Source: Candidatus Saccharimonadota bacterium (GTDB taxonomy: Bacteria; Patescibacteriota; Saccharimonadia; Saccharimonadales; JAXHNE01). From it: a DNA stretch of 64,000 bases. Every line of letters begins with the position of its first letter. The stretch's first letter is position 1. A model generated the notes under the pieces. The model had not been told where the DNA came from and did not search any database. It saw only the letters and a program-made list of their open reading frames with translations. Made by a program: the position numbers and the translations under genes. The stretch is from NCBI GenBank assembly GCA_034520885.1, contig JAXHNE010000002.1:4787-68786 (forward strand), read 5' to 3'. This document shows positions 14,332-61,393 of this stretch, piece after piece.

Positions 14332-14520
14332 TTATTGCTCGATCTTCTTTATCTTGTTCTCGGCCGCCTTGAGCTTGGCTTCCAGCTGCTTAATCAATTC
14401 GGCGCCGCGTTCGTACTTTTTAAAAGCTTCGTCGATATCGATATCTTCCGACTCCAGCTCCGCAAACACCTCGTCCAGTTCTTCGCGTAGTTGCTGATAA
14501 GTTTTATCTGTCATGACCAT
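14332..14520 (-). CDS. xseB: exodeoxyribonuclease VII small subunit
   Basis: 62-aa helical protein; ...LREELDEVFAELESEDIDIDEAFKKYERGAELIKQL is the typical XseB pattern. Confidence 0.85.
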   Translation of the reverse strand: MVMTDKTYQQLREELDEVFAELESEDIDIDEAFKKYERGAELIKQLEAKLKAAENKIKKIEQ

Positions 14521-14935
14521 TAGTTTATAGGTTTTAGTGGTTAGATGCTAGAGATTAGGGGTTAGAGGTTAGTAGGTGGAAGGCGGTAAGCGACTTCGTC
14601 GCAATAGACGATAGATGAGAATTAATAGGTGATAGATGAGGGGTGATGGGTCGTATAGTTGGTAGGTGGCAGTTCTATAGTTCTGAGTAGTGAGTGGTGA
14701 GCTTCAGATAATACTAGAATTAATATCTAGTATTAATTCTAGTATTATTGAAACTTACCAGGCACGAACTGGAAGATAGCAGTTGGCAAGCGGGAAGCTT
14801 TTAGACCCGGAACCGCCGCCACCTCGTTTATCACCTATTAATTCTCATCTATCGTCCTATTGCCTACCGAAGTCGCCTACCTCTTATCTATCACCTATCG
14901 ACTATTATCTATTAACTCTCACCTATGCGGCTTTG
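14521..14935. mobile_element. foldback (MITE/IVS-like) element with heptamer-word arms, a long inverted repeat and a 42-bp AT palindrome
   Basis: The left half is C-poor and the right half is its G-poor complement. 14590-14634 is the inverted repeat of 14829-14876. The near-perfect palindrome is at 14708-14749. There is no ORF, and the element separates xseB from xseA. Confidence 0.7.
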
Positions 14936-16057
14936 CCGCACCTCCCCTTTGCGTGCCGTAAATCTACCCTTGCTTAGTTGAATATCCAGCTCTGCCCCAC
15001 CGGGGATTTTACTTGCGTCACGGGCGGCTTTTCCGTTATGCCGCACCACGGCGAAACCGCGTTTTAACACGTGCTGTGGACTATAAGCTTGTAATAATTT
15101 TTTGCGCTGCTCTAGCGCCTCACGCTGGACGACAAGTTTATCCCGTAACACGTCAAATAGCTGCCGTTTTTGCCGATCCAGCTCGGTTTTGCCCGCGTGC
15201 AACAGTGAACGCAGCAGCCTCGCCAACTCCTGCTGAGAACTTAAAAGTTGCCGGCGTTGATCGCGCTTATCCGGCACCAGCAATTCCGCCGCGTTGCTGG
15301 GCGTGCTGGCGCGCTGATCGGCGGCCTGCTCCGCCAAACTGGTGTCTACCTCGTGCCCGATGGCCACCAAAGTCGGGATCCGGCTGGCGGCAACGGCGCG
15401 CGTCACGTGCTCGTCACTAAAAGCAGCTAGGTCGTCGGCGCTGCCGCCACCTCTGGTAATCACCAGCACGTCAACCGCGTAGTCGGAGTGCGTGTTAAAT
15501 AATTCGATGGCACCGGCGATTTGCCTGGGCGCCACCTCGCCCTGGACTTGGACGTCTTTGTGCAAAATCTCAATCCCCTGCCAACGCGCATTCAACACCT
15601 TTATAAAATCCTTGTAGGCGGCCGATTCGCCGGAGGTGATCAATCCGATTCGTTCCGGCGGATACGGCAAGGTTCGCTTACGCGCGGGATCGAACAGCCC
15701 TTCTTTCGTCAGCTTGGCTTCCAAAAGCGCGGCGGCTTTTTTAATGCTGCCCTCCCCGCTAGGGCGCACACTCCGCAAGTTAATACTGAACCCGAAACGC
15801 GGGTGCAAACGTGGCGTACCGTTAATTTTTACCAGCATACCGTCTTCCAGCGGCCCCGGGAGCTGATACACGCTGCCAAAACACTTTACGCTGGCTTCGT
15901 CATCTTTGACATCGAAATACACCCACTTGTTTTTGCTAATCCGAAAGTTGGCAATCTCACCCTCTACGACCACGTGCGAAAGCGCGAACTCTAGCGTTTG
16001 ATTCACCGTGGCCACGAATTCGACCGGCCGCATCACCAATTCTTCTTGCTCATGCAT
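14912..16057 (-). CDS. xseA: exodeoxyribonuclease VII large subunit
   Basis: OB-fold N-terminus, GLITSGESAAYKDF, VLVITRGGGSADDLAAF, and a coiled-coil C-terminus. The last roughly 8 codons and the stop lie inside the foldback element. Confidence 0.9.
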   Translation of the reverse strand: MHEQEELVMRPVEFVATVNQTLEFALSHVVVEGEIANFRISKNKWVYFDVKDDEASVKCFGSVYQLPGPLEDGMLVKINGTPRLHPRFGFSINLRSVRPSGEGSIKKAAALLEAKLTKEGLFDPARKRTLPYPPERIGLITSGESAAYKDFIKVLNARWQGIEILHKDVQVQGEVAPRQIAGAIELFNTHSDYAVDVLVITRGGGSADDLAAFSDEHVTRAVAASRIPTLVAIGHEVDTSLAEQAADQRASTPSNAAELLVPDKRDQRRQLLSSQQELARLLRSLLHAGKTELDRQKRQLFDVLRDKLVVQREALEQRKKLLQAYSPQHVLKRGFAVVRHNGKAARDASKIPGGAELDIQLSKGRFTARKGEVRQSRIGES

Positions 16058-17211: not shown

Positions 17212-18513
17212 ATGAAGTCACTGGCAATTTTAGGACGGCAACCGGCAATTGGCCTTGCGGAGCTGGAGTCGCTGTATGGCGCCGAAGCCGTACGACCCGT
17301 CGGCGAAAACGCCGTTACCGTTAACATCGCCCCCGATCAAATTGAGTTCAGGCGGCTGGGGGGCACGGTAAAGCTCGCCAAATTATTGACAGTTTTAGAT
17401 TTTACGAACTGGGATAAAATTGAAGATTTTCTGGCCGAGGAACTCCCCAAGCACACCTGTTGCATTACGGAAGGCAAACTGACGCTGGGGCTGAGCGCCT
17501 ACGGGTTCAAAATGAGTCCCAAAAAATTAAACGCCACTGCCCTGTCGCTGAAAAAGACCATCAAAGCCACCGACCGGCCGGTAAGAATTGTACCCAATAA
17601 GTCACTGGAGCTTTCCAGTGCACAGGTACTGCATAACAAATTATTTACCTCGCACAATTGGGAGCTCATTTTGCTGCGTGACGGCAACGAAACCTACCTG
17701 GCACAAACTACCAACGTGCAAGATATCGACGCTTACGCCGCCCGCGACCAAGCCCGGCCGGCCCGGGACGCAAAGGTCGGCATGCTCCCACCGAAATTAG
17801 CCCAAACGATAATTAATTTGGCTGTAGGCCAAATTAAAAAGATTGAAGATCGAGGACAGGAGAACGAAGAAAAAAACCCTCAATCCTCAATCCCCCATCC
17901 TCTATCAGTTTTTGATCCGTTTTGCGGAACGGGCGTGATACTACAAGAAGCGCTACTAATGGGATATCAAGTGACTGGAACGGATCTCGATGCACGTATG
18001 GTCGAATACGCCCGGCGCAACATGGACTGGCTCCAGCAAAAATGGAAGGTGGAAGGTGGAAGATGGAAGGTGGCAGGTGGCAAATGGAAGGTGGAAAATG
18101 GCGATGCAACGGATTACTCCTGGCCTGCGCTCTCAGCTTCCGGCTCTCGGCTCTCGGCTACCATCGCTTGCGAAACGTACTTGGGACGACCGTTTTCTTC
18201 CGCGCCGGATCACGCTACGCTGCAAAAAGTCATGCGTGACGTGGACACCATCCACGAAAAGTTTTTAAAAAACGTGGCCTCGCAGACGGAGTCGGGTTTT
18301 CGAATGTGCCTCGCCGTGCCGGCATGGGCACGCCACAGACAACAGACAACAGACAACAGACAACAGACTTTTAGGCATTTACCGGTGCTTGAAAAATTGA
18401 ACGAACTGGGGTATACTCGATTAAGTTTTGCTCACGCAAGAAACGAGGAGTTGATCTATCACCGAGAAGGTCAAATCGTCGGCCGTGAGCTCGTCGTTCT
18501 AAAAAGAACGTAA
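17212..18513 (+). CDS. RNA (guanine-N2-type, Trm11/UPF0020-like) methyltransferase carrying three in-frame low-complexity inserts
   Basis: N-terminal THUMP-like region and SAM motif I VFDPFCGTGVILQEALLMG. The inserts are at 17841-17906, 18038-18165 and 18335-18368. Confidence 0.7.
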   Translation: MKSLAILGRQPAIGLAELESLYGAEAVRPVGENAVTVNIAPDQIEFRRLGGTVKLAKLLTVLDFTNWDKIEDFLAEELPKHTCCITEGKLTLGLSAYGFKMSPKKLNATALSLKKTIKATDRPVRIVPNKSLELSSAQVLHNKLFTSHNWELILLRDGNETYLAQTTNVQDIDAYAARDQARPARDAKVGMLPPKLAQTIINLAVGQIKKIEDRGQENEEKNPQSSIPHPLSVFDPFCGTGVILQEALLMGYQVTGTDLDARMVEYARRNMDWLQQKWKVEGGRWKVAGGKWKVENGDATDYSWPALSASGSRLSATIACETYLGRPFSSAPDHATLQKVMRDVDTIHEKFLKNVASQTESGFRMCLAVPAWARHRQQTTDNRQQTFRHLPVLEKLNELGYTRLSFAHARNEELIYHREGQIVGRELVVLKRT

Positions 18514-21061: not shown

Positions 21062-21100
21062 GTCAACTTGCGTTCAGAACAAAGCAGGCTCGACGGTATG

Positions 21101-21600
21101 AGTACTAAACCTGGCGTCCTGACTTTGTGCCAGATTGAAATTTTATCCGCGAAGCGCCAAGGAAGCGTACTGAACGTACGGTGACTGCGACTCGTAAGGA
21201 TAAAATACTCAAGCTGGCCAAGAAACATGAATCGCGCGCCTAGTGCTCACACTTGAGTACAGTTTGGTCGTTCTTTTCGAGGAGCGGACCGAGTACTAAA
21301 CCTGGCGTCCTGACTTTGTGCCAGATTGAAATTTTATCCGCGAAGCGCCAAGGAAGCGTACTGAACGTACGGTGACTGCGACTCGTAAGGATAAAATATT
21401 CAAGCTGGCCAAGAAACATGAATCGCGCGCTTAGTGCTCACACTTGAGTACAGTTTGGTCGTTCTTTTCGAGGAGCGGACCGAGTACTAAACCTGGCGTA
21501 CTGACTTTGTGCCAGATTGAAATTTTATCCGCGAAGCGCCAAGGAGGCGTATTAATATACGGTGACTGCGACTCGTAAGGATAAAATATTCAAGCTGGCC
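21101..21600 (+). repeat. tandem repeat, 191-bp unit x about 2.6 (candidate multi-unit ncRNA)
   Basis: Units start at 21101, 21292 and 21483 and are nearly identical by eye. Each has several hairpins, including GCGTAC-TGAAC-GTACGGTGACTGCGA. Confidence 0.85.
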
Positions 21601-21605
21601 AAAGA

Positions 21606-24807: not shown

Positions 24808-24898
24808 AAAGAGCTCCTATTACTTCCCATCATTATGCACGCAAAAAGCAACGATGCGCAAGCATCAGCGTTTTCTAGTCTCTTGTTTACTTATGGGC

Positions 24899-25102
24899 GA
24901 TTCCAGGCTCTGAAGCAACCTGGACGAGCGTTGTGAGAATCAGGCGCCCTTGGGTGCGAGGACTGTTTGAGTAAAAATGGTGCCTGTCGGCACTATTTCT
25001 GTGAGTTCCAAGATCGTGGCTTTTCTAAAATGTTCACTATAGCTTCTTCACTGAAAACTGACAACGAACAACCGACAACTGTTATATAACTAGTTATATA
25101 AC
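24899..25102. repeat. solo copy of the 'unit-2' structured module, followed by GACAAC words and a 22-bp AT palindrome
   Basis: 24901-25008 is about 88% identical by eye to 60826-60932. GTTATATAACTAGTTATATAAC at 25081-25102 is a perfect palindrome. Confidence 0.7.
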
Positions 25103-25121
25103 ACTCAAACGATAAACTGGG

Positions 25122-29368: not shown

Positions 29369-29397
29369 ATTATACACTCGTGACACATGCACCACAA
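29369..29397 (-). promoter_or_regulatory. sigma70-type promoter of ftsE giving a leaderless or near-leaderless mRNA
   Basis: Minus-strand TTGTGG (29397-29392), a 17-nt spacer, then TATAAT (29374-29369) preceded by TG. Seven nucleotides later comes the ATG. Confidence 0.6.
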
Positions 29398-29460
29398 CGG
29401 GCAAAAAGGCAAACAAAGTTCGCTTTATTGCCGTTGCTCTTGGCTCAATAAGTAATTTTC
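29378..29460. repeat. 83-bp direct repeat, copy 1 (overlaps the ftsE promoter)
   Basis: Identical by eye to 29673-29755. Confidence 0.85.
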
Positions 29461-29672
29461 CTTTGTGAGTACTCCCTCACCGTATCTCGATACGCCTCAG
29501 TCCGTTCCTCAAGGAGAAATTACTTCTTGAGCTCAAGTGCATGCCTCACGAAACCCGTATATCCATATCCAATTTTCTTCTGCGGTTCTCCTTCACCGTA
29601 CGGACAAGTACGGCTCAGTCTGCGTCCTCAAAGATAAATTGAATCTGGGATCACAAATGTGAGAGTGGTTTA

Positions 29673-29755
29673 TCGTGACACATGCACCACAACGGGCAAA
29701 AAGGCAAACAAAGTTCGCTTTATTGCCGTTGCTCTTGGCTCAATAAGTAATTTTC
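29673..29755. repeat. 83-bp direct repeat, copy 2
   Basis: Identical by eye to 29378-29460, with a period of 295 bp. Confidence 0.85.
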
Positions 29756-29956
29756 GTTTGCGGTGTTCACTCACCGTACCGAAAGTACGCCTCGCTGAAA
29801 CTCCTCACGAGAAATACCAAATGAGCCTCAAGTGTGTGGCTCTGATTGCAAATCGATTATTTAAGGAGAAATTGCTTCTTGAGCTCAAGTGCAAGTCTTA
29901 GGTTACACGAATTTTTATAGCAATTATAACGGTTTTGGAAGAGCCGGATTTTTAAT

Positions 29957-37106: not shown

Positions 37107-37199
37107 ATTTTCGTACTAACCCCTCTCCACGGTCTGTCATATGTCGATTACGTCAGCGTACATTCTACCTTAAATTATGGACAGATGTAAGAGTGTTTA

Positions 37200-37420
37200 T
37201 GCGTTCGAGTAGTGAGTTATGAGTGCTGAGTAGTGAGTTCTGTGTAAATGATAATAAAGACTTTTTGTGTTCCTTCGCGGAATTATCGCCTTCCTCTCTT
37301 TTTAAAACCGTGAATTACTAAAAACCAAAACTACACCCCTAAAAATTTAATTTAAATTTAATTTAAATTAAATTTCCTACCTCTGTTTTAACGCCTATTC
37401 TTTGCACATAATTATGCAAA
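37200..37420. repeat. foldback-family fragment with GAGTAGTGA words and a 33-bp AT-only near-palindrome
   Basis: GAGTAGTGAGTTATGAGTGCTGAGTAGTGAGTT at 37207-37243 (compare CTGAGTAGTGAGTGGTGAGC at 14684-14703). AAATTTAATTTAAATTTAATTTAAATTAAATTT at 37343-37375. A TTTGCA/TGCAAA hairpin at 37401-37420. Confidence 0.6.
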
Positions 37421-37473
37421 AACTTAAACTTTACCCCTGTTTAGCACACTAATCGGTGTTGTTGCGGTTTTGA

Positions 37474-44406: not shown

Positions 44407-45348
44407 TCAGACGAAAAAGATGAGCGACAAGACGACCAGCAACGTCGCCTGCAAGACAACGATCACCTTTTCAGCGGCTATAAAGTCCTTACCCAGCGAG
44501 CCGGATTTAGTAATTTGCTGCCGATGCACTTGCCCGAGCGCCAGGTAAGCCAAAAATCCGGCGGCCAACAAGGCATAGACGGAGGCGCTCAAAGTAACGA
44601 ACCCGTACAGGTAAGTGTGTAAAATGCTGATACCGATGATAACCCATGGCAAAAGCAGTGCTTCGATGGCGATTTTTTGTTTCAGCCTCGTACTGCGACC
44701 GATCAAGTTATAACGATCGGTCAAATACCCCAAGACGGCGGTAAATGCCGGAATGCTCGCCAAAAGAAGCAGCGTCATAACGTCGCGCACGCCGACCGCC
44801 GCGGCGATCACCGCGATAACCAACGGGCCGAAAACCGCGTGTTCTACCCAGTTCAAACTGGTAAATTTATTCTTTACTTGCGCGCTATAACGAGCGAATA
44901 ACCTTGTCGATAAAGCGGCGTGCCATAAAGCTCCGGCAATCAACACGCCCGCTGCCACGTACAACAGGTTAACCGCGAACAATTCGGTGGCCGCCGGCAA
45001 AAGCGATCCGGTTTCGGTCAAAGTATTCTCCGCCAGGTAGCTGGAGTTAATTCCCACCACCGCGTCATTGCCGTAGCTAAATAAGAATCCGGCCAACACG
45101 GCCATTAATAATCCTAAGAACACGTGCAGTTTTTTAAGCTGCATGAACGCGTCTTTTACGGGCGCGGTTTTTTTGCCCTTGGCCGTAGCCGCTGATTTTT
45201 TAGCGGTCGTTTTGGCCGTAGTTTTCTTGGCCGCCGTTTTCTTGGCGGGTTTTTTAGTGGATTTACGAGCCGTGCTCGCCCTGGAAGTCTTGGTCTTCGT
45301 TTTGGTCGTTGTTTTCGCTTTACTCGGTTGTTTCTTACTTGTAGCCAT
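44407..45348 (-). CDS. heliorhodopsin-like 7-TM protein with Lys/Ala/Thr-rich N-terminal tail
   Basis: Seven predicted TM helices. RYSAQVKNKFTSLNWVEHAV and LPWVIIG resemble heliorhodopsin segments as I remember them. The start is ATG 45348; the ORF-track extension to 45591 is spurious. Confidence 0.55.
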   Translation of the reverse strand: MATSKKQPSKAKTTTKTKTKTSRASTARKSTKKPAKKTAAKKTTAKTTAKKSAATAKGKKTAPVKDAFMQLKKLHVFLGLLMAVLAGFLFSYGNDAVVGINSSYLAENTLTETGSLLPAATELFAVNLLYVAAGVLIAGALWHAALSTRLFARYSAQVKNKFTSLNWVEHAVFGPLVIAVIAAAVGVRDVMTLLLLASIPAFTAVLGYLTDRYNLIGRSTRLKQKIAIEALLLPWVIIGISILHTYLYGFVTLSASVYALLAAGFLAYLALGQVHRQQITKSGSLGKDFIAAEKVIVVLQATLLVVLSLIFFV

Positions 45349-45578
45349 AATGAATGAACTATAGCATATTCCAGCTGATATAATAATAGTATGGTGCAAA
45401 GAGCTGAATGGAGGGATGCCGTGAACTACGCACGTGAGCATAGTTTGGCAGTTCTTCGCGAGCATCGTAAAAGAGGCGTACTTAACGGTACGGTGACTGC
45501 GAAGCGCAGAGAAAACTGGCAAAATATGCCACGAACAGCAACAGCACCACATGCTTGGCATGTGGGCAGGATGCTGTG

Positions 45579-46112
45579 ATGCGTAGTTCACAGGTCGCTA
45601 CTTTGGCCGGTGGTTGTTTTTGGTGCTTGGACGCGATTTTCCGCCAAACCAAAGGGGTAAAATCCGTTCAAAGCGGTTTTAGCGGCGGCCATGTTGAAAA
45701 CCCTAGCTACATGCAAACGCATGATGAAGACACCGGCCACGCCGAAGCCGTACAAATCGAGTTTAACCCTGACGTCATTAGCTACGAAACGATCTTACGA
45801 ATATTTTGGACGAGCCATAACCCCACCACGCTCAACCGTGATGGCGCCAACGTCGGGCCGGAGTACCGAAGCGAGGTGTTCTATCACGACGAAACCCAGC
45901 GCAAAACCGCGGAGAACGTACTACGTGACTACGCCGAAAAACTGTGGGACGATCCCATCGTCACCAAAATTACCAAGTACAAAAACTTCTACCCCGCCGA
46001 AGAACATCACCAGGATTATTTTAATAAAAACCCACAGGCCGGCTACTGCCAAGTCATCATCAACCCCAAAATCACTAAGTTCAAGGAAAAATTCAAGGAC
46101 TATTTAATCTAG
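45579..46112 (+). CDS. msrA: peptide methionine (S)-S-oxide reductase
   Basis: Active-site GGCFWC motif and the size of the MsrA family. Confidence 0.9.
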   Translation: MRSSQVATLAGGCFWCLDAIFRQTKGVKSVQSGFSGGHVENPSYMQTHDEDTGHAEAVQIEFNPDVISYETILRIFWTSHNPTTLNRDGANVGPEYRSEVFYHDETQRKTAENVLRDYAEKLWDDPIVTKITKYKNFYPAEEHHQDYFNKNPQAGYCQVIINPKITKFKEKFKDYLI

Positions 46113-51542: not shown

Positions 51543-52268
51543 TTAAGTTCCGAAACGTCTCTTTCTCGTACCGTACCAGTCTAGCGCATCCTGGAAATCT
51601 TGTAACGTAAAATCCGGCCATAGTTTTTGCGCGAAATACAGTTCGCTATACGCCGCGCGTAAAAGCATGAACCCGCTGGTGCGTTGTTCCCCGGAGGTGC
51701 GAATCACTAAATCCACCGGTGGAATCATGTCGCCTTCATACAAAAGCGAGTGCAAAACGTCCTTGCTCATGTCCTCCGGAGCGATTCTCTTTTCCAAGGC
51801 TTTTTTGTAAACGTCAATCAACTCGTCTTCCCCGCCGTAGTTAAAACACAGCGCCAACGTGCCTTTGGTATTATCTTTGGTTTTTTCTTCCGTTCGGGCA
51901 ATGGCCCGGGCCACGTTTTTGGGGATGTCGGTTTTACGCCCCAAAATTACGATTTTGATTCCCGCTTTATGAAAAGTGTCCAGGTAGTTTTCCACCGCTT
52001 TGGTGACCAACTTCATTAAATACCCGACTTCTTCTTCGGTGCGTGACCAGTTTTCGCTGGAAAACACGAACGCCGAAAGGTACTTTACGCCGCGATCAAA
52101 CGCCCCGAGCGCAATCTCCTTAAAAACTTCCGCGCCTTCCCGGTGCCCTTCCATTGTCGGCAAGCCCTTGGCTTTCGCCCACCGCCGATTACCGTCTAGA
52201 ATTATTCCAACGTGAGTGGGCACGGATTGGGGATTGAGGATTGGGGATTGAGGAGATTCAGTTGGCAT
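51543..52268 (-). CDS. uppS: isoprenyl transferase (undecaprenyl diphosphate synthase)
   Basis: HVGIILDGNRRWAKAKG and RTSGEQRTSGFMLL. The start is either ATG 52268 or GTG 52223; the 15 codons between them are encoded by heptamer-word repeat. Confidence 0.9.
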   Translation of the reverse strand: MPTESPQSPILNPQSVPTHVGIILDGNRRWAKAKGLPTMEGHREGAEVFKEIALGAFDRGVKYLSAFVFSSENWSRTEEEVGYLMKLVTKAVENYLDTFHKAGIKIVILGRKTDIPKNVARAIARTEEKTKDNTKGTLALCFNYGGEDELIDVYKKALEKRIAPEDMSKDVLHSLLYEGDMIPPVDLVIRTSGEQRTSGFMLLRAAYSELYFAQKLWPDFTLQDFQDALDWYGTRKRRFGT

Positions 52269-52626
52269 TTTTACTCCGTAAAGAACCGTTGAGTGCATGA
52301 AGCATACGGGATATTATCGCACATTCTTTCAGTATTTCATCGGCCGGTAGTCGGTATACTTTTTGTGCAGTGATCACCTGTGTTTCGAGTTCGGCCAGCG
52401 AACCAAGAGCAATATCATTAAATCGGATCGTGTCTTTGTTCCCGAACCTTTTTTGACCTTCAGCGATATTTGACGCTACCGAGACTGCCGCCCTTTTCAT
52501 CTGATCGGCAAGAGCAAATTGTTCCGTCTTTGGTAGCTGTGTAATGAGTTCATAGTTTGTCACCGCGAGCTCGACCGCTCGCTGCCACACTTCCAGCTTT
52601 TGATATTCATGAGCACCCATACTCAA
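52258..52626 (-). CDS. four-helix-bundle protein (23S rRNA intervening-sequence protein / Avd-like family)
   Basis: YQKLEVWQRAVELAV...QMKRAAVSVASNIAEGQKRFGNKD...LGSLAELETQ is the family signature. The gene is flanked by inverted heptamer-word repeats. Confidence 0.85.
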   Translation of the reverse strand: MSMGAHEYQKLEVWQRAVELAVTNYELITQLPKTEQFALADQMKRAAVSVASNIAEGQKRFGNKDTIRFNDIALGSLAELETQVITAQKVYRLPADEILKECAIISRMLHALNGSLRSKNAN

Positions 52627-52673
52627 CCTTCCTCAATCTTCAGTCTTCCATCCCCTATCCGAAATAATGACGT

Positions 52674-53237: not shown

Positions 53238-53280
53238 TTATCCTCCAATAATTTACTGGTATCAGTATACAGGATGTAGA

Positions 53281-54100
53281 GTTTGGACGGTAGAGGCGAG
53301 GAGTTGGTAGGTAGTAGATAGGAGATCGGGGATTGAGGATTGAGGATTGAGGAAAGAGTTCTGGGTTCATAGTTCATGGATAGGGTTTAGGGGCTAGGAG
53401 TTGGAAGATGGAAGTTGGAATTTGGTAGATAGAAGATGGTAGTTGGGAGTTAGTATTTCGTAGACAGTTGTCAGTTGTCCGTCTTCAGTAGTTGCGTTGT
53501 TCCAGGCTCTGGCTGAACTGATTGGACGATACGGGCAAAACCAGCAAACAAGCCTCAAGCTTGTTTTTTATGTAGTTACAACTGCCCTCGGCAGTTGTTC
53601 ACTTGGGCTCCAGGCTTCGAAAGCCTCCCCGGTAGTAGAACCAGTTCACTACGGGGCACGCCTGAGGAGCGAGTGTCAAAAGCACAATTTCTGCCGAGGA
53701 CTTGTTTGAGGGGTTGCCGGCTGAAGTATTTTGGCATACCCCGAGTTGTCCGAGCATTGTGCTTTTTGATAATGAGATCATAAAGAGGTTTTCGCGCCTG
53801 TGGCCTTTTTGGGGCACTTTTTGGCTACGCAAAAAGTGTCTGGGGGTGAAGCTGACCAGTCAGCTTCAATAATGACAGAACAAGATAGTGGGTCGGGAAA
53901 GCAAAAGCGAAGCTTTGCGCCGAAAAAACATACTTTGGGGCACTTTTTGGCCATGCAAAAAGTGCCTGACGGGAAGCTGACCAGACAGCTTCATATAATT
54001 CGTTACTGCCTACGATATTGATCGTATAGTTACAGTTGTCTAGCCCCTGTTGCAGAGCAATAATACTAGAATTAATACTAGTATTAATTCTAGTATTATT
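53281..54100. mobile_element. one-armed member of the foldback family: heptamer-word arm, roughly 590-bp structured non-coding core, perfect 42-bp AT palindrome
   Basis: Word arm at 53281-53470, hairpin modules at 53497-53995, palindrome at 54059-54100. The only ORFs here are short and inconsistent. Confidence 0.7.
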
Positions 54101-54120
54101 GAAGTTCCCCGCGAATGTTC

Positions 54121-56925: not shown

Positions 56926-57276
56926 ATGAAAAAGGATATTCATCCCCAGAACTACCGCCCCGTGGTGTTTCAGGACTTAAACAACGACTGGGCAATTTTG
57001 ACCCGCTCCACCGCCGCGAGCGAGGAAACCATTAAGTGGGAGGACGGCAACGAATACCCGCTGGTAAAAGTACACATCTCCAGCAGTTCGCACCCCTTCT
57101 TCACCGGCCAGGAAAAACTGGTCGACATTGAAGGCCGAGTTGATAAGTTCAAGGCACGCCAAGATGCCGCCAAGTCCAAAGCCGACGCCATGAAAAAAGC
57201 CGCCGGCAAACAGCGCAAAAAACAACCCAAAGCCGACGAAACCCAGAAGATGGGTACGCTCAAGCGCAATAAGTAG
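56926..57276 (+). CDS. rpmE: 50S ribosomal protein L31 (type B, no Cys motif) with Lys-rich C-terminal extension
   Basis: [17 protein letters not shown]...[20 protein letters not shown]. Confidence 0.9.
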
Positions 57277-57312
57277 TTGACAGTAATCAGTTGACAGTAG
57301 ACAGTTGTTGAT

Positions 57313-57651
57313 ATGAGTTCGTACCGTGACCTAAAAGTCTGGAAAGATTCATTTGAGCTAACAAAATTAGTTTATAAAGCTACTGTCAAGTTACCTTCAA
57401 ATGAAAAGTTCGGTCTCGCTTCACAAATACAGCGTTGCGCAGTCTCGATTCCGTCAAATATTGCAGAAGGCCAACAACGAAAAGGTGCAAACGAATTTAA
57501 ACAGTTTCTTGGGATAGCCCGCGGTTCTGCGGCCGAACTTTCAACGCAACTTCTGCTTGCCCAGGACATCTATTCTATCGAACTGGAAATACTTGTAGAA
57601 AAAACTGAAGAAATTCAAAAAATGCTCTATAGCTTGCAGCAAAAACTGTAA
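57313..57651 (+). CDS. four-helix-bundle protein (23S rRNA intervening-sequence protein / Avd-like family)
   Basis: YRDLKVWKDSFELTKLVY...QIQRCAVSIPSNIAEGQQRKGANEF...GSAAELSTQ. The gene is flanked by GTTGACAGT / CTGTAACCT word repeats. Confidence 0.85.
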   Translation: MSSYRDLKVWKDSFELTKLVYKATVKLPSNEKFGLASQIQRCAVSIPSNIAEGQQRKGANEFKQFLGIARGSAAELSTQLLLAQDIYSIELEILVEKTEEIQKMLYSLQQKL

Positions 57652-57702
57652 ACTGTAACCTGTAACCTGTAAACTAACCATTGTTACCTGTAAACTAGCC
57701 AT

Positions 57703-58753
57703 ATGGATAAAAAGGAACAAGACCTACGCGACGAGCTCGCCGACATTATGAAACAGCTGGAAGATCCGGCTATTTTCAGCACGCCCGAGTATCCCAAAAT
57801 GCCGCCAAAAAAAGATAGAAGACATACTCGCGCTTTACGATGAACTGGCAAAGAGCAAAGAGCAAAGAGCAAAGAGCAAAGAGCTTCTGGACTCTGACGA
57901 TGAAGAATTGGCCGAACTCGCCAAAAGCGAGATAGAAGATCTGGATTTGAAAATTGAAACCCTCGAACTTAAACTAACGGAGGCTTTGACTCCAAAGGAT
58001 CCCAACGACGAAAAAGATGCCATTATAGAAATTCGCGCCGCGGCCGGTGGCGATGAAGCCGCCCTGTTCGCCGGCGAGCTATACCGCATGTACGCCCGTT
58101 GGTGCGAAACGCACGGCTACAAAATAGAACTTATCAACGAAAGTCCCGCGGAAGTCGGCGGGTTCAAAGAAATCAGCTTTTTGGTGCGCGGCGAAGACAC
58201 CTATAAATTCTTTAAGTTCGAAGGCGGCGTACACCGCGTTCAGCGCGTGCCGGAAACCGAAAGCCAAGGCCGCGTGCACACCAGCACCGTGACCGTGGCG
58301 GTCATGCCCGAAGCCGAAGAAACCGACATTGAAATCGACCAAAACGACCTTCGCGTAGATGTCTACCGAGCCGGCGGCCACGGCGGGCAATCCGTAAATA
58401 CTACGGACTCCGCCGTACGCATCACCCACGTGCCAACGGGGGTCGTTGTTACCAACCAGGACGAAAAATCGCAAATCAAAAACAAGCTCAAAGCCATGAA
58501 CGTATTACGTTCCCGCCTGCTCCAGCACAAAATTGACGAAGAAAACGCCAAGCTATCAGCTGAACGCAAAAAGCTGGTCGGCAGCGGCGACCGCAGCGAG
58601 AAAATCCGCACCTACAACTTCCCGCAGGACCGCATTACCGATCACCGTATTGGCTACTCCCGCAGCAACATCCCCGGAGCTTTGGACGGCCAAATAGACG
58701 ACCTCATAGAAGAACTCCACAAAGCCGAACACGAACTAATGAGTAACGAGTAA
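57703..58753 (+). CDS. prfA: peptide chain release factor 1, reading frame broken by one extra base at an A7 run (57807-57813)
   Basis: Frame 1 (57703-57813) encodes MDKKEQDLRDELADIMKQLEDPAIFSTPEYPKMPPKK. Frame 2 continues IEDILALYDEL...PKDPND...GGHGGQSVNTTDSAVRITH... to 58753. Frame 1 stops at 57841. Confidence 0.85.
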
Positions 58754-59637: not shown

Positions 59638-60513
59638 ATGATTACCATTTCTAGGTGGATGGCTAAAAAAACTAAAGCGCTAGAGAGCGCCGGGATTTCC
59701 ACCGCTCGACTGGATTGTTTGGTGCTTTTAGAGGACGCGACCGGTAAAGATCGTTCATGGTTGCTGGCGCATCCGGAGCACGAGTTAGAAAGTTCAAAAG
59801 TTAAAAAGCTGAAAGAGCAAGTTCAGCGGCGGGCTAAGCATGAGCCGCTGGCCTATATTCGTGGGCGGAGTGCTTTTTATGGCCGGGAGTTTTTGGTGAA
59901 CGAACATACTTTGCAGCCCCGGCCGGAAACGGAAACGATGATCGACCACTTAAAATCACTGTACAAGGTTGAACCTTGTACAGAAGCTAAAAGCTCTGAG
60001 CGAAAAGCTCTGAGCATAGTAGATGTAGGGACTGGATCTGGTTGTATTGGGATTACCGCCAAGCTGGAGCTGCCGGATGCGGAAGTGTATGCCACGGACA
60101 TTTCCGAAGAATGCTTAAAAATAGCCCGAAAAAACGCCCGAAAACTAAAAGCCAATGTGGAGTTCCACAAAGCTAATCTCCTCCTCTCCCAAAAAAATAA
60201 TTCTCACTTTTTGAACGATCGTTCAAAAAGTGAGAATATTGTTTTGCTGGCTAATTTACCTTATGTTCCGGAAGGTTTCACTATAAACCAAGCCGCGATG
60301 TTCGAGCCGGACGTTGCCATATTCGGCGGTAAGGACGGATTGGATTACTACCGCGAGTTATTCGCCCAGATTGAAACGCTAAAAACTAAACCACATTTCA
60401 TTTTTACCGAAAGCCTACCAACGCAGCACAAAGACCTGACTGCAATCGCAGAAAAACACGGGTTTCGGCTTCATGAATGCCAGGATTTTATTCAAGTATT
60501 TATTAGGCGTTAG
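59638..60513 (+). CDS. prmC: release-factor glutamine methyltransferase PrmC/HemK
   Basis: EPLAYIRGRSAFYGREF, VDVGTGSGCIGI, and NLPYV in place of NPPY. ATG at 59638. The stop TAG (60511-60513) lies within the terminal motif of the downstream foldback element. Confidence 0.85.
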   Translation: MITISRWMAKKTKALESAGISTARLDCLVLLEDATGKDRSWLLAHPEHELESSKVKKLKEQVQRRAKHEPLAYIRGRSAFYGREFLVNEHTLQPRPETETMIDHLKSLYKVEPCTEAKSSERKALSIVDVGTGSGCIGITAKLELPDAEVYATDISEECLKIARKNARKLKANVEFHKANLLLSQKNNSHFLNDRSKSENIVLLANLPYVPEGFTINQAAMFEPDVAIFGGKDGLDYYRELFAQIETLKTKPHFIFTESLPTQHKDLTAIAEKHGFRLHECQDFIQVFIRR

Positions 60514-61393
60514 ATGCTAGACGTTAGAGGGTAGAGGGTAGAAGTTGGAAGTTGGAATTTGGAAGGTGGAAGATGGTAGGCGACTTCTTCGCAAAAGGTG
60601 AGAGTTAATAGATAAGGGTTAATAGATGATAGATGAAGGGTGGTAGATGGAAGATGGAAGATAGAAGATGGAAGATGGGGAAAATAATAAGTAAAACATA
60701 AATAGTAAGTTTCCGGGCTCTGCCTGAAACGATTGGACGGCGCCTCGGGTAAAAACCGACAAACAAGCTTCAAGCTTGTTTTTTATGTAGTTACAACTGC
60801 TCCGGAGCAGTTGTTCACTTGGCCTCCAGGCTCTGGAACAACCTGGACGGACGTTGTGGGAATCAGGCGCCCTTGGGTACGAGGACTGTCTGAGCAGAAA
60901 TGGTGCCTGGCGGCACCATTTCTGTGAGTTTCACAGTAAGCCTGATTGTGACAACGGCCGTAGCTGTTGTTTCAGCCGCCTGTCGGCTTTTGTTGCAATC
61001 TTTTGCCGACTCAAAAGATTGCTGACGGGGAGCTGGTCAGTCAGCTTCGCTATTGGCGGAACAAGATAGTGGGTCGGGAAAGCAAAAGCGAAGCTTTGCG
61101 CCGAAAAAACATACTTTGGGGCACTTTTTGGCCATGCAAAAAGTGCCTGGTGGTGAAGCTGACCAGACAGCTTCTATTAGTAGTTACCTACTACTTTGAT
61201 TGTATAGTTATGGCCGTATCGCCCTTGTTAAAACGTAATAATACTAGTATTAACTCTAGTATTAATACTAGTATTATTTTTACTAACTATGAGGTGCTAT
61301 CTTCCATATCCTAAATTCCATCTTCCAAGCACTATCTTCTAGCCCCTGTCTTCAATCTTCAATCCCCAATCTTCATTCCGTAACAACTATGAA
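60509..61393. mobile_element. complete foldback-family element: two inverted heptamer-word arms, structured core, 42-bp AT palindrome
   Basis: Left arm 60509-60700 (C-poor), core 60712-61176, palindrome 61237-61278, right arm 61285-61393 (G-poor, the reverse complement of arm-type sequence also seen at 53300-53440). It fills the whole prmC-htrA convergent spacer. Confidence 0.75.

Follow-up and report, generated by a model that had tools for sequence, protein, structure and literature searches.

Intervening sequences (IVSs) of 23S rRNA genes are among the closest described systems for the element considered here, which lies between xseA and xseB, the genes for the large and small subunits of exodeoxyribonuclease VII, in a Saccharibacteria genome. 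In Coxiella, the IVS carries tandem GACAGAT heptamers that precede the S23p open reading frame (ORF) and vary in copy number between strains, and its terminal inverted repeats form a stem in which RNase III cleaves where the first heptamer begins (PMC4990558). The Saccharibacteria locus comes from an NCBI metagenome-assembled genome (MAG; XseA is MDZ7785583.1) and was analysed within a stretch of 64,000 nucleotides, the window, of the 75,214-bp contig JAXHNE010000002.1. Its xseA-xseB spacer is best explained by a modular foldback repeat, dispersed and non-coding, one copy of which inserted here in this lineage and is referred to as element A. That element A is an ORF-less, IVS-like foldback repeat which is read through with xseA and uncouples xseB is a reading whose chances appear about evenly balanced.

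Tandem heptamers of other bacteria provide a second point of comparison. The GGGNATC heptamers of Xanthomonas and Nostoc obey the positional rule described below for the tracts of this window and are likewise arranged in convergent pairs, and Xanthomonas possesses 70-75 convergent heptamer pairs, with one array per strand, that are capable of forming stem-loops (PMC4692102). In Beggiatoaceae, TAACTGA heptamers abut start codons that are not preceded by a Shine-Dalgarno sequence (PMC4679880).

No description of dispersed intergenic repeats of this sort in Saccharibacteria was found in the literature searched. The Correia/NEMIS repeats of Neisseria and the ERIC/IRU, REP/BIME and BOX repeats are non-coding, hairpin-forming, dispersed, intergenic and co-transcribed, and some repeats of this type are targets of RNase III or RNase E, or stabilise the upstream mRNA. 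BOX and BIME are modular, and some small foldback repeats supply promoters. In eukaryotes, the Foldback (FB) elements have long inverted arms made of degenerate short tandem repeats, and many of their copies are non-coding.

Insertion into a tight gene pair

In the window, xseA (14912..16057, minus strand; PF02601/PF13742) and xseB (14332..14520, minus strand; PF02609) are separated by 391 bp (14521-14911). ORF inspection found no ORF of note in this spacer, which agrees with the gap of about 390 bp without ORFs described in the initial annotation. To place this spacing in context, 80 related loci from GTDB species representatives served as a comparison set, and both genes were found in 74 of them. 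The xseA-xseB gap is between -20 and +25 nt in approximately 66 of these 74 Saccharibacteria loci, which bears out the earlier claim that the spacer sits in a normally adjacent pair. The two closest relatives found (L088 and L089, with XseA identities of 75% and 68%) have gaps of 9 and 4 nt and keep the same gene neighbours around xseAB, thus the alignment of related loci proposed in the initial annotation revealed short junctions and not a conserved spacer. The larger gaps seen in some relatives were considered as the same element and rejected, since they contain an extra ORF (L004), a different hairpin (L015) or a frameshift (L081).

The limits of the insertion can be approximated from the gene ends. 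XseA has 381 residues here versus 369-372 in the relatives and 370-372 in the two closest ones, whose XseB has 60 residues. In the closest relative, XseA ends in ...FTARREKG followed by the stop codon and aataaggtcATG, and in the window it ends in ...FTARKGEVRQSRIGES and a stop, after which about 400 nt precede the sequence ggtcATG. From this comparison of junctions, approximately 420 bp (roughly 14519-14938; element A, with limits approximated from L088 and L089) have therefore been added to a normally contiguous xseA-xseB pair, and the spacer is such an insertion. The last 8 codons of xseA (RQSRIGES) and its TAA stop (14912..14938, minus strand) lie beyond the C-terminus of the closest orthologues and belong to the added sequence, as had been proposed. 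The native start of xseB is most likely the ATG at 14514, a placement made because the closest relatives have a 60-aa XseB and the ggtcATG junction is common to them; everything upstream of this ggtc is element sequence. Hence the proposal that the element supplies the termini of both genes stands for the end of xseA and for the sequence upstream of ggtcATG, and has to be amended for the xseB start codon, which is probably native. No Shine-Dalgarno sequence is seen upstream of xseB (...cctataaactaatggtcATG), as previously noted, and clear ones are present at other genes of the window, for example ggaggataaATG at frr.

Architecture and folding of element A

Element A consists of two arms, two spacers and a central palindrome. 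The left arm (14521..14700, plus strand) is G-rich and poor in C (12 of 180 positions), and it is homologous to the left arms of two further copies in the window, elements C and D. The right arm (14815..14935, plus strand) is its C-rich complement and poor in G (13 of 121). Both arms are 7-nt periodic, with a lag-7 self-identity of 0.54 in the left half (z 7.4) and 0.46 in the right half (z 4.1). The heptamer words are real but degenerate, and on both counts, base composition and periodicity, the description in the initial annotation holds. Tandem Repeats Finder (TRF) reports TTAGAGG in 6.1 copies at 72% together with arrays of period 7, 14 and 21; the arm units are a mixture of GGTTAGA, GATAGAT and GGTGATG with an array identity of 70-72% and no single consensus. 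On the sense strand of xseAB, the right arm becomes the G-rich 5' arm, which begins within the 3' end of xseA, and the left arm becomes the C-rich 3' arm, which extends to the xseB ATG. A small hairpin, GCGGCTTTGCCGC, is found at 14927-14939 within the new xseA end.

The inverted repeat formed by 14590-14634 and 14829-14876, estimated by eye at 85-90%, matches in 44 of 48 columns (92%, 3 gaps). The best ungapped arm pair (14607-14641 / 14822-14856) is 35 nt long and 94% complementary, and a second inverted repeat in the inner arm covers 14 nt at 93%. These pairings lie in the inner, well-paired part of the left arm (14585..14641, plus strand), which also includes a small GC hairpin, GCGACTTCGTCGC, and the outer 60-65 nt (14521-14584) are without a partner in the right arm. 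Between stem and palindrome, the left spacer (14642..14707, plus strand) pairs poorly with 14750-14821 in this assembly. The right spacer (14750..14821, plus strand) is not heptamer-like, varies between assemblies and has no copy elsewhere in the window. The central AT palindrome (14708..14749), already recognised as a 42-bp feature, was recovered by both inverted-repeat and tandem-repeat detection; its arms (14708-14725 / 14731-14748) are 18 nt long and 100% complementary around a 5-nt loop, and it is built of 12-bp periodic TAATACTAGTAT units. The palindrome is centred (~14728) on the axis of the long stem (~14731).

Folding of both strands, a check suggested in the initial annotation, gives a long imperfect hairpin with a calculated energy of -173 kcal/mol for the minus-strand RNA (z -10.0), -195 kcal/mol for the plus-strand RNA (z -10.3) and -91.5 kcal/mol for DNA (z -12.4), and no shuffled sequence folded as well in any of the three cases. 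The two arms are complementary to each other with a score of 79 (z 23.5), compared to 15-31 for the right arms of other elements. A score of 55 is reached between the left arm of element D and the right arm of A, a match due to a module common to the two. The C-rich leader in front of xseB is unpaired in the minimum-free-energy fold.

These features suggest how the element may act. The insertion point would lie just before the original xseA stop codon, with the consequence that xseA ends in element sequence and xseB lies about 400 nt downstream. In relatives, xseB is 0-10 nt from xseA and presumably translationally coupled to it; here, it would be translated from the unpaired C-rich leader without a Shine-Dalgarno sequence. 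Element A is probably transcribed together with xseA, because no terminator-like site was found inside it. The RNA is predicted to form a stem of more than 100 nt that holds helices of 27-35 near-perfect base pairs. Such a stem could be an RNase III substrate and/or a barrier to 3' exonucleases that protects the 3' end, and the xseA and xseB messages would thereby be split or decoupled by an element that encodes nothing itself. Readings of the spacer as a retron, diversity-generating retroelement (DGR), CRISPR, terminator or small ORF were rejected, as there is no reverse transcriptase, repeat-spacer array, T-tract after the stem or conserved ORF.

Related copies in the window

The palindrome core occurs at exactly three sites of the window (14708-14749, 54058-54103 and 61237-61278), with none expected by chance, and the three copies are 90-98% identical, which makes the palindrome the best conserved module. 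At all three sites, a homologous G-rich left arm is situated to the left of the palindrome on the plus strand. Left-arm homology among the three elements is supported by nhmmer E values of 1e-25 to 1e-31, and the arms share the non-repetitive blocks GTTAGATGCTAGA and GGTAgGCGACTTCnTCGCAA, between which the number of heptamers is variable. The suspicion that the foldback has other copies, and the search for further copies of the arms that went with it, are thus borne out within the 64 kb.

Element C (53238..54105, plus strand) is located between small ORFs on the tsf side and frr, and comprises three modules, a left arm of G-rich heptamers (53271-53471), a core rich in hairpins and the palindrome (54058-54103), but lacks a right arm. 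Element D (60514..61393, plus strand) fills the gap between the convergent prmC and htrA genes with a left arm (60509-60680), a core, the palindrome (61237-61278) and a right arm (61290-61393), which is C-rich and pairs with the left arm (fold z -10.6). Both are 870-880 bp long and exceed A in length because they carry the hairpin-rich core. The cores (53480-54057 and 60690-61236) are hairpin mosaics that have a 115-nt block in common at 100% identity and contain four copies of a double-hairpin unit (GGGGCACTTTTTGG..CAAAAAGTGCC, then GAAGCTGACCAGACAGCTTC); the core modules have no match in Rfam. Overall, the copies are modular, with modules that are 66-98% alike and with different lengths (415 to 880 bp) and cargo. 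Element A is, on this evidence, one copy of a local repeat family, whose members in the 64 kb appear too unlike each other for a classical miniature inverted-repeat transposable element (MITE).

BLAST and nhmmer searches with A, C, D and other large spacers found no members of the family in about 1 Mb of other Saccharibacteria loci, with the exception of contigs from the same organism. The palindrome core CTAGTATTAATWCTAGTATTAT gave five matches in JGI metagenome contigs, all of them chance matches in low-GC coding DNA, and no match in IMG/VR viral contigs, and BLASTN of element A against phage and plasmid collections returned no match.

Two observations concern the core content of C and D itself. 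A bidirectional terminator-like hairpin is part of it at 60761-60781, and a 109-nt module has a third copy (89% identical) at 24902-25010, in the spacer 24808-25121.

Heptamer tracts across the window

The arms of these elements belong to a broader set of heptamer tracts. The window contains 13 strongly 7-periodic tracts versus none in the shuffle, with lag-7 z values of 4-10 in all element arms, and its density of period-7 arrays is 2.8 per 10 kb, against 0.54 per 10 kb for 928 kb from other Saccharibacteria. On the sense strand of the neighbouring gene, G-rich arms start directly at a stop codon or no more than about 20 nt from it (xseA, prmC, htrA, rpmE and frr), and C-rich arms reach or lie within about 100 nt upstream of start codons (xseB, prfA, frr, uppS and two more genes). 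The opposite polarity was not seen at any intergenic tract examined against neighbouring genes. Since the order of a G-arm followed by a C-arm survives reverse complementation, this polarity is a real regularity.

Heptamer arrays are also found within genes. A THUMP-less RNA/DNA methyltransferase-like gene (17212-18513) contains four in-frame arrays (CCTCAAT, TGGAAGG, GCTCTCG and ACAGACA), three of which coincide with insertions of 11, 7 and 9 residues when compared to the 74%-identical orthologue in L088. At the corresponding position in other genomes, 2-2.5 kb upstream of xseA, heptamer arrays with other units are present in L003, L054, L063, L066, L070, L076 and L081. The coding sequence of prfA (57703-58753) includes a perfect GCAAAGA array of 5.3 copies (57848-57884). 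In addition, the prfA reading frame of this assembly is interrupted by a frameshift at an A7 run (near 57806-57813), which leaves the N-terminal 32 codons in another frame and could represent a sequencing error, a pseudogene or slippage.

A layout similar to that of element A is seen in a 367-bp gene-free spacer between a hibernation-factor gene and secA (37107-37473). There, C-poor GAGTAGT-type heptamers (37207-37260) are followed by the AT-only palindromic AAATTTAATTT in three copies (37343-37375) and a G-poor stretch, and the spacer has no sequence similarity to element A.

Cassettes around IVS-protein genes

Two further heptamer-bracketed cassettes contain a gene. Cassette B (52215..52672, minus strand) lies between frr and uppS and holds an IVS-protein gene at 52258..52620, flanked 5' by GATTGAG-type heptamers and 3' by their complement. 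Its arms are 81% complementary over 32 nt, and the 3' arm falls within the annotated 5' end of uppS. Cassette E (57275..57702, plus strand) lies between rpmE and prfA and holds its gene at 57313..57651, with CAGTTGA-type heptamers 5' and AAACTGT-type heptamers 3'. Both genes encode four-helix-bundle proteins of the '23S rRNA intervening sequence protein' family (PF05635/TIGR02436; E 3e-31 and 7e-34).

The arrangement rpmE-IVS-protein gene-prfA was present in 7 of 7 other Saccharibacteria genomes checked (L090, L091, L092, L095, L096, L097 and L098), in each case flanked by 5' ACAGTnn and 3' nnACTGT arrays, and the last nnACTGT heptamer stops a few nucleotides before the prfA ATG. The core of these heptamers is similar to GACAGAT, the unit repeated in the 23S IVS of Coxiella. 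Similarly, frr-IVS-protein gene-uppS with the same GATTGA / TCAATC arms was found in the one other genome checked (L099, 1460-1900), where the orthologue is 67% identical. Judging from these comparisons, both gene arrangements are evidently old. The latter locus also encodes (L099 1-52) a PF01797 Y1 transposase of the IS200/RAYT type about 1.4 kb upstream of frr; enzymes of this kind act on hairpin repeats, and the window has no such gene.

Variation between assemblies

The locus could be compared with an independent assembly, the Logan contigs of run SRR26473340, in which one contig covers the xseA side (L001) and another the xseB side (L087). On the xseA side, there is 1 SNP in 6,247 bp, and the xseB side is likewise near-identical. 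Both gene junctions are confirmed, as L001 leads from xseA through the G-rich arm into the AT palindrome and L087 from the C-rich arm into xseB. Both contigs end inside element A (L001 6240-6383; L087 1-95), and their interiors differ from the window. In L001, the arm on the xseA side includes 56 nt that are identical to the complement of the window's other arm and would give a more perfect hairpin, and its right-side sequence would better complement the left spacer (14642-14707). The arm of L087 on the xseB side has extra GGAAGAT-type heptamers. The switch between arm blocks in L001 spans only 9 shared bases, which makes an artefact of the k-mer graph unlikely. Either the population is heterogeneous at element A, or one assembly is imperfect in 14750-14882.

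Elsewhere, L001 ends inside another repeat at 21100-21602, which consists of a 191-bp unit in 2.6 tandem copies at 97% identity within a 650-bp gene-free spacer.

Origin and role of the element

Several points weigh against an IVS-like element that acts at the RNA level. Co-transcription, folding in vivo and cleavage are all deduced from sequence, and complementarity over the whole arms of A is limited to 94 of 136 positions (69%). G-U pairs and fold energy favour the plus strand in A, B and D regardless of gene orientation, which for A is the strand antisense to xseAB; there is thus no signature of selection on the sense RNA, and the asymmetry may reflect mutation bias. At the rpmE-IVS-protein gene-prfA locus, covariation between the 5' and 3' arms across 8 genomes gave a within-genome score of 25.9 versus 26.1 between genomes, which suggests that the arms of the IVS-protein genes are conserved motifs rather than sites of free compensatory change. 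The approximately 70 ORFs of the 64-kb window include no transposase, integrase, reverse transcriptase or RNase III gene, hence neither a mobility gene nor the predicted nuclease, and in the case of transposase the initial annotation had said as much. No target-site duplication, which the initial annotation had proposed to look for, is definable against the closest empty sites, and the TAAT present at both junctions is ambiguous as a duplication, being also part of the heptamer words. No empty site was found in a conspecific strain. Finally, part of 14750-14882 may be specific to a strain or an assembly.

Some of these points fit a selfish or neutral MITE-like foldback that was moved in trans by a transposase encoded elsewhere (e.g., of the Y1/RAYT type), is tolerated at this site and has no role at the RNA level. 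The element was inserted in this lineage, has long inverted arms and codes for nothing, related copies exist, the orientation with respect to flanking genes varies (A versus D), the G-U asymmetry does not track the sense strand, and a related genome has the PF01797 gene near its frr-IVS-protein gene-uppS cassette. Against it stand the missing transposase and target-site duplication, the mosaic nature of the copies, which differ in cargo and arm length (415 to 880 bp) instead of being near-identical, and the exact stop-to-start fit with a fixed G-then-C polarity, which points to an expression constraint; a MITE-like origin is therefore considered doubtful, though it deserves to be taken seriously. 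It is improbable that the element grew in place without transposition, by slippage of heptamer microsatellites of the short tandemly repeated repetitive (STRR) or GGGNATC kind and copying of the second arm through foldback or template switching at the palindrome. Heptamer arrays are indeed common in this genome, even in frame within genes, array content varies between two assemblies of the same population, and convergent pairs of G-rich heptamer arrays are known in Xanthomonas without a link to mobile elements (PMC4692102). However, homologous non-repetitive blocks are common to A, C and D, and so is the 42-bp palindrome (90-98%), a combination that independent growth would not produce. In D, moreover, the palindrome adjoins the right arm and is 560 nt away from the left arm, an arrangement for which simple foldback copying at this site does not account.

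The AT palindrome could alternatively be a bidirectional promoter or operator that gives xseB a promoter of its own, with the arms being incidental. The palindrome is the module with the highest conservation (90-98%), it offers a weak symmetric promoter-like match, TTAATA-17-TATTAT in A and TTAATA-16/17-TATTAT when A and D are taken together (9/12 on both strands in either element), and in A and C it lies upstream of xseB and frr in the sense direction, with the C-rich arm as leader. A match of this strength is nevertheless expected of any AT-rich palindrome, and the numbers do not exceed those of shuffles; in D, no gene lies downstream in either direction, and a clear promoter-like site elsewhere in this genome, which scores 11/12 at 14324-14297, provides a contrast. 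A promoter function of this kind is accordingly given little credence. It is very improbable that the assembler created the element in the MAG through a chimeric or palindromic join: the interior of the element does differ between the MAG and the SRR26473340 Logan contigs, whose flanks are identical (1 SNP in 6.2 kb), and both of these contigs end within the element, but the independent assembly confirms both junctions, and a k=31 graph cannot join arm blocks over 9 shared bases, as in L001, without real reads. The fact that other assemblies break inside element A was counted toward a repeat family.

Comparison with known systems

Element A shares several properties with the 23S rRNA IVSs. In both, a cargo is enclosed by a long stem of complementary terminal sequences (with helices of 35 nt, 94%, and 14 nt, 93%, in A; z -10), the total size is about 400-450 nt, and tandem heptamers are present in the 5' region, namely GACAGAT in Coxiella, the GATAGAT type in A and ACAGTnn at the IVS-protein genes described here. 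Furthermore, the sister cassettes B and E encode proteins of the same PF05635/S23p family. Unlike the IVSs, A is located between two protein-coding genes and not in helix 25 or 45 of the 23S rRNA, and so lacks their defining location; its arms are much longer (120-180 nt) and 69% complementary overall, it has a conserved central AT palindrome, and its cleavage by RNase III is a prediction. In contrast to IVSs of the Coxiella/Leptospira type, it has heptamers without an S23p/PF05635 ORF, a feature that B and E do possess. The likeness to a 23S rRNA IVS proposed in the initial annotation gains strength from the two heptamer-bracketed PF05635 genes and from the GACAGAT heptamers of Coxiella. The window itself contains no tRNAs, and neither rRNA nor any other Rfam family matches it at the gathering score; at relaxed thresholds, solely chance hairpin matches to miRNA models appear (E above 0.06).

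Tandem 7-nt intergenic units connect the arms to the heptamer repeats of Xanthomonas and Nostoc (GGGNATC / GGGGAYT), the cyanobacterial STRR and TAACTGA of Beggiatoaceae. The tracts examined here resemble those of Xanthomonas and Nostoc in having the G-rich strand after a stop codon and in forming convergent pairs, and the arms of B and C, alone among the arms, use GGGGATT/GAGGATT units. They differ from these named classes in that the units of A are degenerate and mixed, without one dominant consensus, the arms hold non-repetitive blocks common to the copies, a conserved palindrome is attached, together with a hairpin-rich core of 560 nt in C and D, and the host belongs to another phylum with a reduced genome, the Saccharibacteria.

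Among mobile and dispersed repeats, MITEs resemble A in having terminal inverted repeats, which are long and imperfect in A with a weak short terminal match (ATAGGT...). The three related copies in 64 kb have modules that are 66-98% identical and are unequal in length and cargo. As neither a duplication nor a transposase nor near-identical copies were found, element A cannot be classed as a MITE on this evidence. REP/BIME repeats are GC-rich palindromes of 20-40 nt associated with RAYT, whereas the arms of A measure 120-180 nt and are AT-rich to neutral, and the window has no PF01797 gene. Similarly, A has no sequence similarity to Correia, ERIC, REP or BOX repeats (no match in the phage and plasmid collections or Rfam), its arms are heptamer arrays and far longer, and neither a TA duplication nor a RAYT gene is seen. 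The resemblance to FB elements, which belong to another domain of life and another size range, is one of design only. By analogy, element A would work most like an IVS or an intergenic hairpin of the Correia or ERIC type, and it is built of heptamer arrays of the kind known from Xanthomonas, cyanobacteria and Beggiatoaceae.

Other features of the window

The spacer after an ftsE-like ABC gene contains two pairs of direct repeats about 300 bp apart (29378-29498 / 29673-29793, 91%; 29511-29541 / 29863-29893, 97%) and has weak similarity to spacers in L006 and L039. A gene of the heliorhodopsin family (PF18761, E 8e-20) with a long N-terminal extension is present at 44407-45591.

Conclusions

Genomes of Saccharibacteria, which belong to the candidate phyla radiation, are small and gene-dense, and this locus shows a dispersed repeat reshaping a conserved operon: the element rewrites the end of xseA and leaves xseB without a ribosome-binding site. 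Such elements break short-read assemblies and vary between near-identical strains, hence they are usable as strain markers.

To conclude, the window ties together bacterial heptamer repeats, the four-helix-bundle family of '23S rRNA IVS proteins' and Avd-like proteins, and intervening sequences processed by RNase III. A heptamer stem around a cargo is an authentic IVS design, which is found in this genome in mRNA operons, and element A is a larger, ORF-less example of it that uses other heptamer words (GATAGAT, GGTTAGA and GGTGATG). If the link is functional, it would provide a testable hypothesis for heptamer repeats, IVS proteins and intervening sequences alike. A broader and distinctly speculative proposal, to which only a small probability is assigned, is that Saccharibacteria carry a family of IVS-type cassettes outside rRNA, with heptamer stems around an IVS-protein gene or a non-coding cargo. 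The gene cassettes are fixed at the rpmE-prfA and frr-uppS sites, whereas the element at xseA-xseB would have spread recently as a member without an ORF and would be excised from mRNA by RNase III, with IVS/Avd-like proteins recognising the heptamer stems. If this were true, the classical 23S rRNA IVS would be a single site of insertion within a broader class of elements that split operons.

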